From Blastocatellia bacterium (GTDB lineage: Bacteria; Acidobacteriota; Blastocatellia; UBA7656), in the NCBI GenBank assembly GCA_035576605.1, contig DATLWF010000598.1, forward strand, positions 1-57,044: a DNA stretch of 57,044 bases. Reading direction: 5' to 3'. Below the pieces are notes generated by a model. That model worked only from the letters and a program-made list of their open reading frames with translations. It was not told where the DNA came from and searched no databases. The translations under genes and the position numbers were made by a program. Below are positions 2,252 to 53,724 of this stretch, in pieces (within the stretch, counting starts at the first letter, position 1; the number at the start of each line of letters is the position of its first letter).

Positions 2252-2683
2252 TCAGTTCGAGCCGTAAGCTCGGAGTCTACGGGCGTTTCGGCGCTCTTTC
2301 AGTTGTTCGAGCTTCTGCTGTTGTTCAGGCGTGAGCAGCGCTGCGATATCGCTTCGTAAGTTCACGTTGAGCGCTCGTAGTTGTTTGTTGAGGCCGCGCC
2401 TGGCAATCACAAGTTGGCCAACAGCGTTCGGATTTGGCTCGGGCGTCTCAAGCGCTTTTTGCAGCTCTTGATTCCGGGCGCGCATATCTTGCCTGAGCGG
2501 GAAGGCAGCCTGGCGATGCTTCTTGACCAGCGCGCTAACCCTGGTGACTTGTGTGTCGGTCAACGCCAAAGCACGCTTCAACCTCGCCAATTGTCCCCCG
2601 TGTCCCTGTGCCGCGGCGACGCTGCCGCAAACAACGAGCAAGCAACTCATCAGAACCAACGAAGAGATCCTCTTGATGAACAT
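2252..2683 (-). CDS. Spy/CpxP-family periplasmic chaperone / metal-stress protein (LTxxQ repeats)
   Basis: This is track ORF 2252..2701, with start taken at ATG 2683. It has a signal peptide (MFIKRISSLVLMSCLLVVCGSVAAAQ) and two LTxxQ motifs (LTDTQ, LTPEQQQKLEQL) in a helical basic protein. Confidence 0.75.
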   Translation of the reverse strand: MFIKRISSLVLMSCLLVVCGSVAAAQGHGGQLARLKRALALTDTQVTRVSALVKKHRQAAFPLRQDMRARNQELQKALETPEPNPNAVGQLVIARRGLNKQLRALNVNLRSDIAALLTPEQQQKLEQLKERRNARRLRAYGSN

Positions 2684-40173: not shown

Positions 40174-40704
40174 TTACTTGTCCACCCCAAAGCAGAAGAC
40201 TTCTTGCAAGCTCTCGGTTATAAACGCATATTCGCCAGGCGTAAGCGGGTTTACAGGCGCGAACTTGTAAGAGTGCTCTCCGAACCTGGTGACATTGACC
40301 TGGAAAAACCCGCTCTTCGCTGTCATGAGTGTTGCGGAACCAAACACCAGCAGTCGTTTACCATCCTTAGCTTCGAGTCTGTAGAGCCTCATTTTGAGCG
40401 GGTCTATGCCCCAGGGAAGCTGTAAAACAAACTCCAACGTCTGGCCAGCCTTCAAGCTTAGAGAGGAGTGCTCGCCCTCAACTTCCGCCACAACTCTGTA
40501 GCCACCGAACCCGAGAGCTCGTAGCTTTGCTCGTCCTTTTACGATTTGCCTCTCAGTGCCGACCAGAGCGTTGGAGGCTGAATCCAGGTAATAAATGACG
40601 CCGATGTTTTCGGGCTCCGGAACTTTCTTATCTTGTCCAATGGCGTCATAGAAAAGCAGCAGCGAGAGGACGGAGCAGGTGAGAACACGACTGTAGTTGG
40701 TCAT
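40174..40704 (-). CDS. hypothetical secreted protein
   Basis: This is track ORF 40174..40767. ATG 40704 follows AAGAGG and gives the signal peptide MTNYSRVLTCSVLSLLLFYDAIG. I recognised no family. Confidence 0.6.
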   Translation of the reverse strand: MTNYSRVLTCSVLSLLLFYDAIGQDKKVPEPENIGVIYYLDSASNALVGTERQIVKGRAKLRALGFGGYRVVAEVEGEHSSLSLKAGQTLEFVLQLPWGIDPLKMRLYRLEAKDGKRLLVFGSATLMTAKSGFFQVNVTRFGEHSYKFAPVNPLTPGEYAFITESLQEVFCFGVDK

Positions 40705-40955
40705 CGGTCGACGCCTCTTGGTCTTTGAGTTTGATGCGAACCCCGGGAGGATTCGGCTATGCCCCAACGCTTCTAGGCATATTTAATCCACTGATCACTG
40801 GACCTGTCAATGCCAACCAACGCGTGTTCAGCATGATTCTTAGCCGCCTTTTACTACGTGAGGTCATCAGGCACACTACCAGCCCACCTTCCAAGCCGCG
40901 ACTAACGTTTTTGCGAGTCCTGGCCCTGTGACTCGTGCCATTGTGGCCAGGATTC

Positions 40956-41975
40956 TCAGTTGAGGAATCGGGACTCCAGACGGACGTACGCACGAAGCTC
41001 AGCCATTATCTCCGCGAACATCGGAGGCGTTAGCGATTGCGGGCCGTCCGACCAAGCCTCCTGCGGGCGAGGGTGAACTTCGATGATCAAGCCATCGGCG
41101 CCGATCGCTACAGCCGCCTTTGCGGCAGGACGAACCAGGCTCCTGCGGCCGGTGGCATGGGAGGGATCGACAATCACCGGCAGATGACTCAACTCGTTCA
41201 ACAACGGGACGGCTGCAAGGTCCAACGTGTTGCGGGTGGCAGTCTCGAAGGTTCGAATGCCTCGCTCACAAAGGATTATTTGATCGTTTCCGTGTGATGC
41301 GATGTATTCGGCTGACAGGAGCAGCTCCTTTATCGTCGAGCTCATCCCCCGCTTGAGCAGCACCGGACGTTTGACGCTGCCAAGCCGCTTCAGGAGCGCG
41401 AAGTTCTGCATGTTGCGTGCGCCAACCTGAAGTATGTCTGCGTACTCGGCGACTACCTCGGTGTCTTCGGTTGTCACGACTTCGGTTACGATTTTGAGCC
41501 CGGTCTGAGCGCGCGCTTCGGCCAGCAGCTTGAGTCCTTCCACTTCGAGACCCTGAAAGTCATAAGGCGAGGTGCGCGGTTTGTAAGCGCCGCCTCGCAG
41601 TACCTGCGCGCCGGCAAGCTTGACTGCTTCAGCCGTCTCCATCAACTGCTCGCGCGTCTCGACCGAGCAGGGCCCGGCCATCACGATGAACTCCTTGCCG
41701 CCGATTTCGAGATCCCCAACGCGCACGATTGTGCGTTGAGGCTGCAACTCACGGCCAACGATTTTGTAAGGCTGCAAGATTGGCACGACGTCTTCGACGC
41801 CCGGCACCGAGCGCAGGTTTTGCAAATGGTCTTTGTTGTCTCCGTGCCCGACTGCGCCAATTACCACGCGCTCTTCGCCTCGTATCACGTGCGGTTTGTA
41901 GCCGTACCGGCGTATGCTCTCACAGACTTCTTCGATTTGTTCTTCGGTTGCGCTTGATTTCATTGCGATGATCAT
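40956..41975 (-). CDS. aroF: 3-deoxy-7-phosphoheptulonate (DAHP) synthase, type I-beta with N-terminal ferredoxin-like regulatory domain
   Basis: The 339-aa ORF has a GGAGAG RBS. Signatures are [45 protein letters not shown] and [12 protein letters not shown]. Confidence 0.94.
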
Positions 41976-41988
41976 TGTTTTCTCTCCA

Positions 41989-42093
41989 TCTGAAATCTTG
42001 AATCTGAAATCTTGAATCTGAAATCTGCGATCTGCAATCTGAGATCTGAAATCTGAAATCTGAGATCTGAGATCTGCAATCTGAGATCTGAAA
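41989..42093. repeat. 15 x 7-bp perfect-register tandem array (TCTGAAA consensus) in the pheA-aroF intergenic region
   Basis: The units are tctgaaa tcttgaa tctgaaa tcttgaa tctgaaa tctgcga tctgcaa tctgaga tctgaaa tctgaaa tctgaga tctgaga tctgcaa tctgaga tctgaaa, with no indels. It ends 13 nt from the aroF start codon. Confidence 0.9.
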
Positions 42094-42112
42094 TGCCCTG
42101 CTGGGCCCTCTC

Positions 42113-42154
42113 ACGTTTTACGTTTCACGCATCACTCGTCACGCATCACTTCTC
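42113..42154. repeat. second heptamer array (ACGYNTC-like, 6 units) overlapping the 3' end of pheA
   Basis: The units are acgtttt acgtttc acgcatc actcgtc acgcatc acttctc. The pheA stop codon (42139-42141) lies inside unit 4/5. Confidence 0.5.
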
Positions 42155-43005
42155 CAGTAGCTCCCCAGCACTCGGACGCTCTCAGCGAGCTCCGAAAGGT
42201 TCGCGAGCGCTCGCTCGACGTGGGGCTCGTGCTGATCGCCGATCAGGTCGAGATAGAACGAGTACTCCCACGGGCGGCCCTCGATGGGACGCGATTCGAT
42301 CTTGGTCAGATCAATGTCGCGCAGCGCGAACGCAGCAAGCGAGCGGAACAGGCCGCCGGGCTTGTTCGCTACCCGAAAGACAATGGATGTCTTCCGCTGG
42401 GCCTCGTTCGAAGTCGTTCTGATGGAAGCCGCGCGGTCCGGCCGGGCGAGCAGAAGGAATCTGGTGAAATTCTGGACGTTGTCTTCGATGCTTTCCGCGA
42501 TGATTTCTGCGCCGTAGACCGCGGCGGCGGTCGCGCCGGCGATTGCCGCGTCCTCCCCGGAGTTGCTCTCGACTATCATCTTGACGCTGCCGGCAGTGTC
42601 GTAAGCGGGCGCGACCTCGATTTGCCGATTGGCACGCAGAAACCGTTCGCACTGTGCGAGCGCGACCGGATGGGAGTGGACGCGACGGACATCGGTGAGG
42701 GCTACGCCGCGGGGCGCGATTAGATGATGCACGATTCTTACGTTCGTTTCGCCGATGATCGTAAGCTCGTGCTCCATCAGCAGATCGTAGTTCTTATGCA
42801 CCGAACCGGCGAGGCTGTTCTCGATCGGAGCTGCCGCGGCATCCGCCGCGCCGGTTGACACCGCCTCAAACATCTCCTCGAAGGTCCGACAGGGAATTGT
42901 TTCGACACTGGAACCGAGGAGTTGTCGCGCAGCGTCTTCGCTGAAAGCTCCGCGTTCGCCTTGGAAGGCGACCGTAGCTGTATTCTCCGGCTTTGTGTGT
43001 TCCAT
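42139..43005 (-). CDS. pheA: prephenate dehydratase (PDT + ACT domains)
   Basis: This is track ORF 42139..43017. ATG 43005 follows GGAGAAG. Signatures are VAFQGERGAFSE, ENSLAGSV, NFTRFLLL (TRF motif) and TKIESRP (ESRP motif). Confidence 0.93.
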   Translation of the reverse strand: MEHTKPENTATVAFQGERGAFSEDAARQLLGSSVETIPCRTFEEMFEAVSTGAADAAAAPIENSLAGSVHKNYDLLMEHELTIIGETNVRIVHHLIAPRGVALTDVRRVHSHPVALAQCERFLRANRQIEVAPAYDTAGSVKMIVESNSGEDAAIAGATAAAVYGAEIIAESIEDNVQNFTRFLLLARPDRAASIRTTSNEAQRKTSIVFRVANKPGGLFRSLAAFALRDIDLTKIESRPIEGRPWEYSFYLDLIGDQHEPHVERALANLSELAESVRVLGSYWRSDA

Positions 43006-43015
43006 CAACTTCTCC

Positions 43016-43056
43016 AAAAACTTTAAAGCCCGCTGCCTTCGTCGGAAGGAGCGGGC
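43016..43056 (-). terminator. attenuator terminator immediately upstream of pheA
   Basis: The minus strand reads GCCCGCTCCTTCCGACGAAGGCAGCGGGC (43028-43056 rc). This gives a 12-bp stem with one bulged C and a CGAC loop. It is followed by TTTAAAGTTTTT, which runs into the pheA RBS. Confidence 0.6.
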
Positions 43057-43083
43057 CTCAAAATCCTAGTATCCGTTCTCGGA

Positions 43084-43206
43084 CTAGACCCCGGCATCCT
43101 CCGCAGTTGCTGCGGTGCTAAAGCTAAAAAAGCTAAACCGGAAGCAGCCTAAACGCCTGTCGCCTCTCGCCGCGTTATTGTTATCTTGTAAAATCCCTAA
43201 GGCCAT
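43084..43206 (-). CDS. Phe-rich leader peptide (40 codons) of the pheA-aroF operon
   Basis: ATG (43204-43206 rc) follows AGGGAG plus 6 nt. The translation is MALGILQDNNNAARGDRRLGCFRFSFFSFSTAATAEDAGV*, with five Phe codons in eight positions. The stop lies 27 nt before the terminator stem. It is below the ORF-track size cut-off. Confidence 0.55.
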   Translation of the reverse strand: MALGILQDNNNAARGDRRLGCFRFSFFSFSTAATAEDAGV

Positions 43207-43239
43207 TGTTCACTCCCTGTCGTTTCCAGCTTGGGCGGC

Positions 43240-43269
43240 ATTATCAATGAGAGCCTCGAAGCCTGTCAA
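43240..43269 (-). promoter_or_regulatory. sigma-70-type promoter of the pheA leader (TTGACA - 18 nt - GATAAT)
   Basis: On the minus strand, TTGACA lies at 43264-43269 rc and GATAAT at 43240-43245 rc. This is about 35 nt upstream of the leader ATG. Confidence 0.5.
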
Positions 43270-43377
43270 GGTGTTTGTCGGCCCGATGACCTTCCTGGAT
43301 TGCAGCCTCCGAGGACATAGCACGCCACCGATAGCACGACACAGCATGGATTATTTCTGGTTCTTAGCAGTTCATGC

Positions 43378-43860
43378 CTACTGACTCATATTCCCTATAT
43401 CTTCGGTGAGCTTCTGAAGTTTTAGCCGGTCGAGTTTCTCAAACGGCAACGAGCAGAACAGGTCGATTCGTCTTTGCAGTTGTATTGCGGCATACCTGAA
43501 CTGGCGGAATTTTGCGTCGTCCGTTCCGGTAGCTAACGCGGGGTCTGGAATACCCCAATGAGCTACGATAGGTTGACCGGGCCAAATCGGGCATGATTCG
43601 CGCGCGTTGTCACAGACCGTTATTACGAAATCAAATTCGACCGCTTCGTATTCATCCCAGGACTTGCTGCGAGCTTCGTTAGCGTCGATGTGATAAAGCT
43701 CCTTTAACACTCGCAAGGCATAAGGATTCACAGTGCCCGTCGGGTAGCTGCCCGCGCTGTAAGTCTCGAAGCGGCCCTCCGCGCATCTCCTGAGTAGATA
43801 CTCAGCAATGATGCTGCGGGCTGAATTGCCAGTGCACAGGAACAGGATGCGTCTTGTCAT
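43378..43860 (-). CDS. arsC: arsenate reductase, LMW-PTPase / thioredoxin-coupled type
   Basis: It reads ILFLCTGNSARSIIAE (CX5R P-loop) and ...VITVCDNARESCPIW. ATG 43860 overlaps the upstream stop (TGATG) and follows AAGGGAG. Confidence 0.92.
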   Translation of the reverse strand: MTRRILFLCTGNSARSIIAEYLLRRCAEGRFETYSAGSYPTGTVNPYALRVLKELYHIDANEARSKSWDEYEAVEFDFVITVCDNARESCPIWPGQPIVAHWGIPDPALATGTDDAKFRQFRYAAIQLQRRIDLFCSLPFEKLDRLKLQKLTEDIGNMSQ

Positions 43861-44183
43861 CACTCGTTTTCTCCCTTTGTGATTGGCGCGCTACTTCGCC
43901 CCCTGTAAAGAATTCTGCTGAGCACTGTCGCGGCGCTCGCAGCGACCGCGATAACAAGCGTAGCGGGACGAAGCCCAGTAGTGACCAATAAGATGACGGT
44001 AATACCGGCCAGCCACAACTGCGCAAAACCGAGAAAGAGTCTCAGCCATCCCCAGATCAATTTGCCGTGACTCTGCGTCCATACCAGACCACTTACATAT
44101 GCCCAAGCGAATATAAGCGCAGTATAAGAATCACATAACACATAATGCAAGCCGTATATGTTTACTGGTAGACTTAAGGGCAA
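43860..44183 (-). CDS. small hydrophobic membrane protein (about 3 TM) translationally coupled to arsC
   Basis: The 107-aa track ORF is very hydrophobic (…LIFAWAYVSGLVW…LIWGWLRLFLGFAQLWLAGITVILLVTTGL…LVIAVAASAATVL). It has only non-ATG starts (TTG 44183, TTG or GTG further in), so its 5' end is uncertain. Confidence 0.5.
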   Translation of the reverse strand: MPLSLPVNIYGLHYVLCDSYTALIFAWAYVSGLVWTQSHGKLIWGWLRLFLGFAQLWLAGITVILLVTTGLRPATLVIAVAASAATVLSRILYRGRSSAPITKGENE

Positions 44184-44605
44184 TGAAAGGCCGAAACAAA
44201 CAGTTTGATATGGATCAATTACTTCGCGCGCTGGCTGATCGGACGCGACTGCGATTGCTCAACCTGATGGGGAACGATGAAGTGTGCGTCTGTTTCTTTG
44301 TCGAGATTCTGAGAGAAAGCCAGCCAAAAATATCGCGCCATCTGGCGTACTTGCGCAGAGCGGGGATAGTCGTATCCCGCCGCGAAGGCAAGTGGATGCA
44401 TTATCGGATTACCGAGCCGCCTGATCTTCATGCTGCGAGGGTGCTTAGTGAGGTGCGAGCTTGCTTAAACGAGGACAAGAAGATGCAGCGTGAGCGTTCG
44501 CGTTTGGTGAGCGCGTTTTGTGCGGCCGATCTGCCCATACAACTTCGGGGAGCACCGCGACCGACGAATTACTCGGGGGTTGTTGATTCGACCACTGCCG
44601 TGTGA
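44183..44605 (+). CDS. arsR: ArsR/SmtB-family metalloregulator
   Basis: It reads LLRALADRTRLRLLNLMGNDEVCVCFFVEILRESQPKISRHLAYLRRAGIV, a wHTH with a CVC metalloid-binding motif. It is divergent from the membrane-protein/arsC pair. An alternative start lies at ATG 44210. Confidence 0.88.
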   Translation: MKGRNKQFDMDQLLRALADRTRLRLLNLMGNDEVCVCFFVEILRESQPKISRHLAYLRRAGIVVSRREGKWMHYRITEPPDLHAARVLSEVRACLNEDKKMQRERSRLVSAFCAADLPIQLRGAPRPTNYSGVVDSTTAV

Positions 44606-44612
44606 TGCTTCA

Positions 44613-46148
44613 TCAAACGCGCTCGAGCCCGAACATCTTCTTGTAGTGCCGATACCAGTCGCTCTGAAACACTTCGTCCGGGTCGTGCTTGACCTTCAGC
44701 TCTAGAAACTCCCTGAACTGCGGATAACAAGCTTCCACCTGCTCCTTCGTCGCGAAACGGTGATAAGTCAGGTAGTAGCTTCCGCCATACTTGACACCCA
44801 GATCGATTAAACTGCGAAACGCGGCGGCGGCATTCTCCAATCCCGTCGTGTCGTGGTTAACGTGTAGATTGAAGATCACGCACGCAAACGATTTGCGGGC
44901 CCAGCGGAGAAAGCTCTCTTCGTCCTTCTCGATCAACCGAACCGTTCCATAGATCACGTTCCCGTTTTGGTTTCTCAAAGCAACGCGGGCATCTTCCATG
45001 AAGCTCGCCAAGGATTCCCTTGGAACATATATCTCGGTGATCATCTCGGTGGCTTTCACCTTCGCGCCCAGCTTGCGATCGAGCTCTTCGTGATAGTTGT
45101 CCACGTAGGCAGCCGACAGTTGAGAATCGGCCCAGTAGACCTGCCCCGATGTTGCGAGATACCGCTTCGTATAGACCTCGAACGCGCGGCGCTTGTATTT
45201 ATGCGAATAGTACGTCAGCCGCGCCCAATCCTCCGGGTGAAACCGGGTAGGGTTTACGGTGAGCGGCGTCGCCGGATCAACCGGGCGATAACACGAGAAG
45301 ACTCCGCGGCGGAGAAAGCTTTCACGGCTGCTGTCGGTCGCGAACTGGAAGTCTCCGTACAAGTACCCATCCGCGATTCGCCGATCGAAGGACTGTATGA
45401 TGTCTTTCATGTCTCGAATCTCGACTATGCGCTGTACTTTCCTGCGTTCCCACAACCGCAGCCGCACTGATGTCACGATGCCAAACAGACCGTAGCCGCC
45501 AATGACTAACCGAAACAGCGCAGAGTTCTTGTCGCGGCTGCATGGCACGACCGCGCCGGTGTGATCCATCAGAGTGAAGGAATCAACCTGGTCGATGATC
45601 GGCTTGAATTTCAAGCCCCGGCCGTGAACATTCGAGGCGAGCGCGCCGCCGATCGAGAGCCGATCCGCGCCCGTCTGTTTCTGCACTATGCCCCACTGTT
45701 TCTCACGGCCGGCTTGAACTCTCATCAAGTAGTCGAGCAACTGAGGCCATTCAATCCCTGCCTCGACCTCGACGATGCCTCGTTCCGCATCCAGGTTCAG
45801 CACGCGATTCATTCCCGTCATATCGACGAGGATTGTCCCGGTACCGAACTGCTGCGCGCCCATCGAATGGCGTCCGCCGGAAATGCTGATGGCTTTGCCT
45901 TGGGCTCTGGCGGTGAGGATCGTGGCGCGCATATCGTTCGAAGAGAGCGGCTTGATGACGCGGCTGACACGAGTCGCGTTGAGCTGAGAGTGAATGTCAT
46001 TGACGATGGCTTCTGAGTTGTCGGACGTTTTTGGCGCGACAGCTATGAGCGACTGTGGGGACGCCGAGCCGGTCAATACGCCGGGCATCGCAGCAACGGC
46101 GCAAGTCGCTTTCAAGAAATCGAAAAACTCTCGTCGTGATAACGTCAT
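44613..46148 (-). CDS. Tat-exported FAD-binding (PCMH/FAD_binding_4) oxidoreductase
   Basis: This is track ORF 44613..46169. ATG 46148 follows GAGGA. It has a twin-arginine signal MTLSRREFFDFLKATCAVAAMPG and an FAD-binding region (…ISISGGRHSMGAQQFGTGTILVDM…GIVEVEAGIEW…GGALASNVHGRG). Confidence 0.85.
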   Translation of the reverse strand: MTLSRREFFDFLKATCAVAAMPGVLTGSASPQSLIAVAPKTSDNSEAIVNDIHSQLNATRVSRVIKPLSSNDMRATILTARAQGKAISISGGRHSMGAQQFGTGTILVDMTGMNRVLNLDAERGIVEVEAGIEWPQLLDYLMRVQAGREKQWGIVQKQTGADRLSIGGALASNVHGRGLKFKPIIDQVDSFTLMDHTGAVVPCSRDKNSALFRLVIGGYGLFGIVTSVRLRLWERRKVQRIVEIRDMKDIIQSFDRRIADGYLYGDFQFATDSSRESFLRRGVFSCYRPVDPATPLTVNPTRFHPEDWARLTYYSHKYKRRAFEVYTKRYLATSGQVYWADSQLSAAYVDNYHEELDRKLGAKVKATEMITEIYVPRESLASFMEDARVALRNQNGNVIYGTVRLIEKDEESFLRWARKSFACVIFNLHVNHDTTGLENAAAAFRSLIDLGVKYGGSYYLTYHRFATKEQVEACYPQFREFLELKVKHDPDEVFQSDWYRHYKKMFGLERV

Positions 46149-53620: not shown

Positions 53621-53724
53621 TTTTCTATTTTCTATTTTCTATTTGTCATTATTTGTCATTTGTCATGGATTAGGAGCTTCCCTATACAATGACAAATAGA
53701 AAATAGAAAATAGAAAATAGAAAA
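53621..53724. repeat. inverted repeat whose arms are heptamer tandem arrays (TTTTCTA x3 + TTTGTCA ... TGACAAA + TAGAAAA x4)
   Basis: 53621-53665 reads ttttcta ttttcta ttttcta tttgtca tta tttgtca tttgtca. 53690-53724 reads tgacaaa tagaaaa tagaaaa tagaaaa tagaaaa. It lies in the divergent glgC/psuG promoter region. Confidence 0.85.

Follow-up and report, generated by a model that had tools for sequence, protein, structure and literature searches.

The pheA-DAHP synthase operon and its leader region

We analyzed a 57,044-nt stretch of DNA from a Blastocatellia bacterium, here called the window. Its minus strand encodes a monofunctional prephenate dehydratase (pheA), followed by a type I-beta 3-deoxy-7-phosphoheptulonate (DAHP) synthase that carries an N-terminal regulatory domain. 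Both NCBIfam matches exceed their cut-offs, in agreement with the gene assignments of the original prediction, which read the region upstream of pheA as a classical ribosome-mediated attenuator. The upstream neighbors, an arsenate reductase-like gene and a divergent ArsR-family gene, are both unrelated. We read the minus strand from 42850 to 43450 together with the ORFs listed for it and found all of the predicted elements, as follows.

43240..43269, minus strand: sigma-70-type promoter TTGACA-18-GATAAT (-35 at 43269-43264, -10 at 43245-43240)
43207..43239, minus strand: 5' UTR with Shine-Dalgarno (SD) sequence AGGGAG (43218-43213), read from the sequence
43084..43206, minus strand: leader ORF from the ORF listing, 40 codons plus UAG (43086-43084), MALGILQDNNNAARGDRRLGCFRFSFFSFSTAATAEDAGV
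43120..43143, minus strand: regulatory run, Phe codons 22, 24, 26, 27, and 29 (one UUC and four UUU), interleaved with CGG and AGC
43101..43115, minus strand: hairpin CCGCAG-CAA-CUGCGG, seen in the window; candidate segment 1:2 or pause hairpin
43086..43103, minus strand: segment 2, the G-rich 3' end of the ORF (codons 35-40 and the first two stop bases); putative 5' strand of the antiterminator
43072..43083, minus strand: spacer hairpin UCCG-AGAA-CGGA, from folding; putative antiterminator apex
43028..43064, minus strand: predicted terminator hairpin, with core 5' arm GCCCGCUCCUUC (43056-43045), loop CGAC, and 3' arm at 43040-43028
43016..43027, minus strand: U-rich tail UUUAAAGUUUUU, abutting the pheA ribosome-binding site (RBS) GGAG (43015-43012); pheA ATG at 43005
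42139..43005, minus strand: pheA, monofunctional prephenate dehydratase with C-terminal ACT region (NCBIfam NF008865, 244.6 bits, cut-off 219)
40956..41975, minus strand: DAHP synthase, type I-beta, second gene of the operon (NCBIfam NF006421, 510 bits, cut-off 335)

The promoter matches the consensus at 11 of 12 positions and is the only promoter-like match in a 4.5-kb scan (40500-45000). Downstream of it, AGGGAG is separated by a 6-nt spacer from the ATG at 43206, as had been proposed. The leader ORF that opens there has the predicted 40 codons, five Phe codons in a stretch of eight, and stop. Short leader ORFs rich in codons for the end product characterize attenuators, and this one precedes pheA and a DAHP synthase gene.

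The 12-bp GC-rich hairpin claimed 27 nt after the leader stop, with a tail running into the pheA RBS, is likewise present. Its 3' arm, GAAGG-C-AGCGGGC (43040-43028), has one bulged C, and the core begins 27 nt past the stop. The base of the stem reaches 43064 and 43020, and this extended hairpin folds with -29 kcal/mol. The tail is interrupted by A residues (UUUAAAGUUUUU in the window and CUCAAAGUUUUU in close relatives). The 43064-43020 hairpin was absent from a simple terminator scan of 40500-45000, which the bulge and the A residues in the U tract presumably explain. By sequence and folding, an intrinsic terminator is predicted between the leader and the first structural gene; transcription would stop at this hairpin.

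Five Phe codons in eight have a chance probability of 6.7e-6 per position, and about 0.8 such runs are expected over the approximately 114,000 positions of the window, so the Phe run alone is not significant. The leader is the sole short ORF in the 57-kb window that pairs an amino acid run with a strong downstream terminator, and a whole-window scan for other leader-like ORFs gave no credible second candidate. What counts is the combination of elements rather than the run by itself, because the whole layout is kept in 29 other loci, described below.

A 7-nt tandem array (41988-42094; about 15 copies of TTCAGAT, read on the gene strand, with 80% matches) fills the 163-nt spacer separating pheA from the DAHP synthase gene. 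Two further 7-nt arrays, both shorter, overlap the stop of pheA (42111-42149), and the only other 7-nt array in the window lies at 53694-53724. The spacer array might influence how the two genes are coupled or how stable the mRNA is between them.

Conservation of the leader among relatives

Scanning for PheA with one genome per species gave 80 loci, the more distant half of them Chloroflexota. The closest PheA relatives belong to Blastocatellia metagenome-assembled genomes (MAGs) and are up to 93% identical. An ORF with an aromatic run lies 5' of pheA in 27 Acidobacteriota-type loci; in two further loci (L009 and L019), the complete attenuator layout precedes a DJ-1/PfpI gene inserted 5' of pheA. 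The full layout of promoter, ATG, aromatic run, stop, and terminator is thus found in 29 other loci, the window contributing the 30th leader. Lack of conservation of the Phe run in relatives had been named beforehand as evidence against the original prediction; instead, run, frame, promoter, terminator, and operon are kept together in these 29 loci.

The leader also keeps company with one gene pair. Where the sequence of a leader locus extends far enough, pheA is directly followed by the DAHP synthase gene (25 of 25 loci, to which L009 and L019 can be added); two leader loci (L008 and L031) end before the pair could appear. Put the other way, a leader is present in 28 of 28 sequences in which the pheA-DAHP synthase pair is observable (the window and 27 loci). 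No clear leader was found in any locus without the pair, including approximately 41 Chloroflexota-type loci.

Promoters of the form TTGAC(A/T)-16/17/18-nA(T/G)AAT, scoring 10 to 11 of 12, lie 5' of the leader in all 26 loci examined (L004 and L013, both cut by a contig end, were omitted), and an in-frame ATG follows 10 to 71 nt downstream. Many of the homologous leaders have no detectable SD sequence. In 26 of 26 loci analyzed, the leader stop is followed after 17 to 29 nt by a hairpin that folds at -21 to -33 kcal/mol and then by a U-rich tail.

Within the leaders, the run follows the pattern F-x-F-x-F-F-x-F-S, and Phe makes up 34 to 38% of run codons versus 4.2% in the genes of the window. 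Runs of clades 1 and 2 are almost pure Phe (35 to 38% of run codons), and clade 3 runs contain 34% Phe, 14% Tyr, and 4% Trp, compared to 4.2%, 2.6%, and 0.8% in the window's genes. Substitutions inside the run are mostly to other aromatics (Tyr or Trp). Phe codon choice is inverted toward the less-used codon, with UUU at 71% in leaders versus 36% in the window's long ORFs.

The distance from the last Phe codon to the stop is exactly 12 codons in 29 of 30 leaders. The identity of the stop varies (UAG, UAA, and UGA), and its position relative to the last Phe is fixed. The N-terminal part is variable in both sequence and length, giving leaders of 22 to 71 codons, and the C-terminal leader peptide is kept within clades. 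Translation of the leader is favored because the N terminus varies, the stop codon changes identity at a fixed 12 codons, and the replacements are aromatic. These patterns are signs that the ORF is read as codons and is not merely an RNA motif.

The codon-level pattern bears on two other explanations of the conserved region. One is that the U-rich UUUAGC repeats form an RNA motif bound by a protein (TRAP-like, recognizing UAG triplets) or by tRNA, with the ORF incidental. The final UUUAGC of the run is indeed nearly invariant in the window (43120-43143) and homologs, and Ser codons inside the runs are AGC in 66 of 91 cases compared to 29% in genes, an over-use that points to a nucleotide-level constraint. 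Set against this are the conserved frame, start, and stop, with Phe, Tyr, and Trp interchanging; there is no candidate gene for an RNA-binding protein linked to the locus, and the leader strand of the window has no match to T-box or any other Rfam family at E <= 10. We regard this explanation as scarcely credible.

Every UUUAGC in the leader runs also creates an out-of-frame UAG. Pairing of AAGCUKG at the transcript 5' end with UUUAGCUUU of the Phe run was tried as a cause of the AGC bias and rejected (mean z 0.03). The AAGCUKG motif itself follows a GC-rich discriminator at the opening of the window's 5' UTR; the sequence after the -10 element (43226-43239 in the window) is kept in clades 1 and 2 as gccSgcc and then AAGCTKG, which in these clades probably sits at the transcript start.

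In the second explanation, the ORF would stand alone as a small gene, encoding a Phe-rich peptide and equipped with its own terminator, and pheA would be expressed by constitutive read-through or from an unrecognized promoter. Conservation of the C-terminal peptide within clades would fit such a gene, as would the calling of the ORF as a gene in a few assemblies, and some leader peptides act in trans (e.g., peTrpL of Sinorhizobium). The N-terminal two-thirds, on the other hand, are unconserved in length and sequence, substitutions in the run remain aromatic, and the ORF is strictly linked to pheA-DAHP synthase. Nor could a separate promoter for pheA fit before the RBS, which the U-rich tail of the terminator directly adjoins. 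Three leader peptides, scanned against Pfam and NCBIfam, gave no match at E <= 10. An independent peptide gene therefore seems to us highly improbable, and reading the ORF as the leader of the operon is preferred.

The original prediction held that annotation would miss the leader. The family is unnamed, as expected, but it has not been missed entirely, since the leader peptides account for six unnamed entries among 5.8 billion proteins. In Rfam, the leader strand of the window matched nothing at E <= 10, Phe_leader (RF01859) included, and the leaders of eight homolog loci matched nothing at the gathering score.

One leader, in L007 (2622-2990), has a run expanded by tandem duplication, with FFRFS repeated, at least 12 Phe codons, and a total of 71 codons. 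In the same locus, a unit of about 15 nt (GCAGTTTTTGGAGAG) occurs in five tandem copies between the terminator and pheA. These duplications suggest that leaders of this family evolve by slippage. In clade 1 loci (L001, L002, L007, and others), the motif CAAAGTTTT flanks the terminator hairpin as a direct repeat.

Alternative folds of the leader RNA

The 231-nt leader region folds better than its shuffles (z -2.96). The original prediction had leader codons 35-39 pairing with the 5' arm of the terminator. We found this pairing, but the helix is longer than proposed: GCGGAGGAUGCCGGGGUCUA pairs with GAGGCCCGCUCCUUCCGA over 14 bp, at -21.6 kcal/mol by RNAduplex, and includes two bases of the stop codon. 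Between the two strands, UCCGAGAACGGA of the spacer hairpin is kept in clade 1, and clades 2 and 3 have other hairpins that enclose the stop codon.

To place the ribosome in these folds, only the RNA ahead of it was folded, with the A site on a given codon and a mask reaching to +13 nt; this assumes no pairing between the RNA behind and the RNA ahead of the ribosome. A mask that left the upstream RNA free to pair gave long-range pairs across the ribosome, which we judged unrealistic, and the downstream-only folds were substituted. Placing the stalled ribosome on any one of the window's five Phe codons yielded antiterminator folds between -25 and -29 kcal/mol, with 11 of 13 nt of the terminator 5' arm paired. 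With the ribosome at the stop codon, segment 2 is covered, just -4.8 kcal/mol of competing structure is left, and the terminator forms. Across 26 loci, the means for stall and stop are -27.2 versus -3.8 kcal/mol, with 67% versus 23% of the 5' arm paired. The energies of the alternative structures, whose comparison had been proposed as a check, follow the logic of classical attenuation.

Shuffling sets a limit on how precisely the helix can be placed. When the upstream strand was shuffled with dinucleotides preserved, the mean z across loci was -1.84, and the window gave z -1.4, with 18 of 200 shuffles folding as well. The paired fraction of the 5' arm was 0.67 against 0.62 for shuffled sequences, barely above them because any G-rich segment pairs with a C-rich arm. 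The exact register of the antiterminator is therefore weakly supported in these models, being statistically indistinguishable from that of any G-rich segment.

Comparison between clades adds a second line of evidence. Segment 2 matches the clade's own terminator arm in each case: CGGAGG...GGGUCU with AGGCCC...CCUUCCG in clade 1, GGAGCGGGG with CCCGCUCC in clade 2, and GAGAGGGG with CCCCUC in clade 3. The antiterminator is the consensus fold in each of the three clades. Cognate segment 2:3 duplexes beat permuted ones, with 109 of 20,000 permutations reaching the observed sum, a weak signal that is confounded by relatedness. One compensatory change occurs in the segment 2:3 helix, from G-C to A-U in L030; within clades, the antiterminator pairs are nearly invariant and hence uninformative.

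The terminator stem itself covaries between clades (GC in 20 and CG in 6 at one pair), and its arms pair at -28 kcal/mol when cognate versus about -15 kcal/mol when combined across clades. We obtained these results by per-sequence and per-clade folding. A whole-family MAFFT alignment with RNAalifold gave just six terminator pairs because the bulge and the clade-specific registers misalign the stems.

The terminator conformer is approximately 20 kcal/mol more stable than the antiterminated conformer, so any switch must be kinetic. Kinetic control likewise operates in classical attenuators.

The hairpin CCGCAG/CUGCGG overlapping the codons just after the Phe run was the remaining structural claim. 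It is present in the window, but it is neither conserved nor statistically supported. The core common to clades 1 and 2 is only the 4-bp CCGC/GCGG, and a conserved segment 1:2 hairpin was rejected for 26 loci, where shuffles of the region were on average at least as structured (mean z +0.39). In folds of the window, the 6-bp stem hardly competes with the antiterminator. A segment 1:2 hairpin overlapping the regulatory codons is typical of attenuators and not strictly required; here we found no such conserved element. Without a conserved anti-antiterminator, segment 2 could re-form the antiterminator after ribosome release unless the polymerase had already terminated. This may be a leader family that lacks the textbook anti-antiterminator.

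These results also bear on whether leader translation controls the operon by some route other than segment 2:3 pairing, such as another RNA partner, ribosome-polymerase coupling, or Rho acting on the untranslated leader. The indistinct antiterminator register and the missing anti-antiterminator would both be compatible with this, and in the ribosome-free fold the terminator 5' arm pairs with the leader SD and start region. Yet in all three clades the ORF ends in a G-rich segment able to pair with that clade's own terminator arm, the arms differing between clades; the constant distance of 12 codons suits a switch based on the ribosome footprint, and a strong intrinsic terminator is predicted in every locus. 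On balance, we think such a route unlikely and favor the segment 2:3 switch.

We conclude that the region is quite probably a ribosome-mediated, Phe-sensing transcription attenuator of the pheA-DAHP synthase operon with an unannotated leader. The conserved layout in 29 loci and the stall-versus-stop logic of the masked folds support the classical reading of the original prediction. We infer both translation of the ORF and a Phe-dependent change in read-through. Transcription would start at TTGACA-18-GATAAT, and a ribosome would translate the 40-codon leader. When charged tRNA-Phe is plentiful, the ribosome would run to the UAG and cover segment 2; the terminator hairpin would then fold, and RNA polymerase would stop in the U-rich tail before the pheA RBS. 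With charged tRNA-Phe in short supply, the ribosome would stall on codons 22-29 and leave segment 2 free to pair with the terminator 5' arm before the 3' arm is transcribed. The terminator would be blocked, and pheA and the DAHP synthase gene would be transcribed.

A broader proposal is that the leaders make up a distinct family spanning much of Acidobacteriota, with a two-state switch lacking an anti-antiterminator, a 12-codon ruler, and a clade 3 re-tuned to Phe, Tyr, and Trp. We advance this only tentatively. Under this proposal, the ruler would determine at which position the ribosome leaves the antiterminator strand free and at which it covers that strand.

Known leader systems and outlying loci

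The E. coli pheL-pheA attenuator was reportedly described by Zurawski in 1978. Like the window leader, this system (Rfam RF01859) has a short ORF with a Phe run, then an intrinsic terminator, then pheA, and the supply of charged tRNA-Phe sets expression through alternative RNA folds, as is proposed here. The two differ in most other respects. The window leader has no sequence or structure match to RF01859, even at E <= 10; it has 40 codons, compared to 15 in pheL; its Phe codons have Ser, Arg, or Ala codons among them, where those of pheL are contiguous; and twelve codons follow the last Phe instead of one. The pheA gene here is monofunctional and co-transcribed with that for DAHP synthase, unlike E. 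coli pheA.

Longer leaders occur in enterobacterial leuL, ilvL, and thrL, whose Gly-rich C-terminal tails are encoded by a G-rich antiterminator segment several codons after the regulatory run. The placement of such a segment at the ORF end, beyond the run, is shared with the leader described here. The enterobacterial leaders respond to other amino acids and show no sequence relationship to this one; their segment 1:2 hairpins are well defined, a feature unsupported here.

The Corynebacterium glutamicum aroR-aroF leader, reportedly the subject of Neshat et al. in 2014, offers a precedent for control of a DAHP synthase operon by a leader peptide. In the summary given by one source, the Phe-Tyr-Phe leader peptide AroR attenuates the aroF (DAHP synthase) operon, and read-through rises under Phe limitation (PMC11802643). 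The systems are alike in placing an aromatic-codon leader before a DAHP synthase operon, and clade 3 leaders likewise mix Phe and Tyr; aroR differs in phylum, in having only three regulatory codons, and in operon content, pheA coming first here. Homology between the acidobacterial leader and aroR is not expected.

In one survey of attenuators, almost none of the predicted acidobacterial attenuators had an assigned function (PMC2965389), and in another, pheL was distributed among gamma-proteobacteria, Bacteroides, and Desulfobacterium only (PMC3082878). No account of a Phe leader in Acidobacteria came up in our literature searches, in line with the original prediction, which was aware of none, although the searches covered the broad attenuator surveys incompletely, and an earlier prediction is possible. 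The leaders most likely form a previously undescribed, conserved sequence family across several acidobacterial lineages. Attenuation itself is understood as before: the mechanism is textbook, and what is new is the acidobacterial sequence family, marked by a long leader, a 12-codon ruler, runs of mixed aromatics in one of its clades, and the lack of a clear anti-antiterminator.

Acidobacteriota rank with the most abundant bacteria in soil, and to our knowledge almost nothing is known of their gene regulation. The predicted attenuator would be a conserved, testable example of RNA-level amino acid sensing in this phylum and would account for the unannotated 250-nt gap upstream of pheA. If clade 3 runs have been re-tuned to Phe, Tyr, and Trp, as tentatively proposed above, a single leader would integrate the supply of all three aromatic amino acids in controlling entry to the shikimate pathway. 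The approximately 30 natural variants, alike in their 12-codon spacing and diverse in their aromatic mixes, offer material for studying how the design of a leader sets attenuator sensitivity.

Several loci depart from the common arrangement. The DJ-1/PfpI-family insertions lie at L009:2378-2983 and L019:1469-2287, between the attenuator and pheA; from this position, the inserted gene would come under Phe-dependent attenuation. In a Thermoanaerobaculia locus (L022:2870-3000), a strong terminator-like hairpin sits just 5' of pheA with a short ORF containing two Phe codons (…RFFS…), and no DAHP synthase gene follows pheA. This could be the attenuator in decayed form, or an element distantly related to it. 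Four MAGs (L002, L019, L020, and L024) are labeled Clostridia, Myxococcaceae, or Heliomicrobium, and their PheA sequences are 56 to 91% identical to the Blastocatellia sequence; three of the four carry the acidobacterial leader. The labels are probably binning or labeling errors. Finally, a Blastocatellia locus (L011) has two inverted copies of the Rfam Acido-Lenti-1 RNA, at 2321-2365 (minus strand) and 2462-2506 (plus strand), which score 42 and 43.5 bits (gathering score, 37) and lie approximately 270 to 450 nt upstream of the leader.
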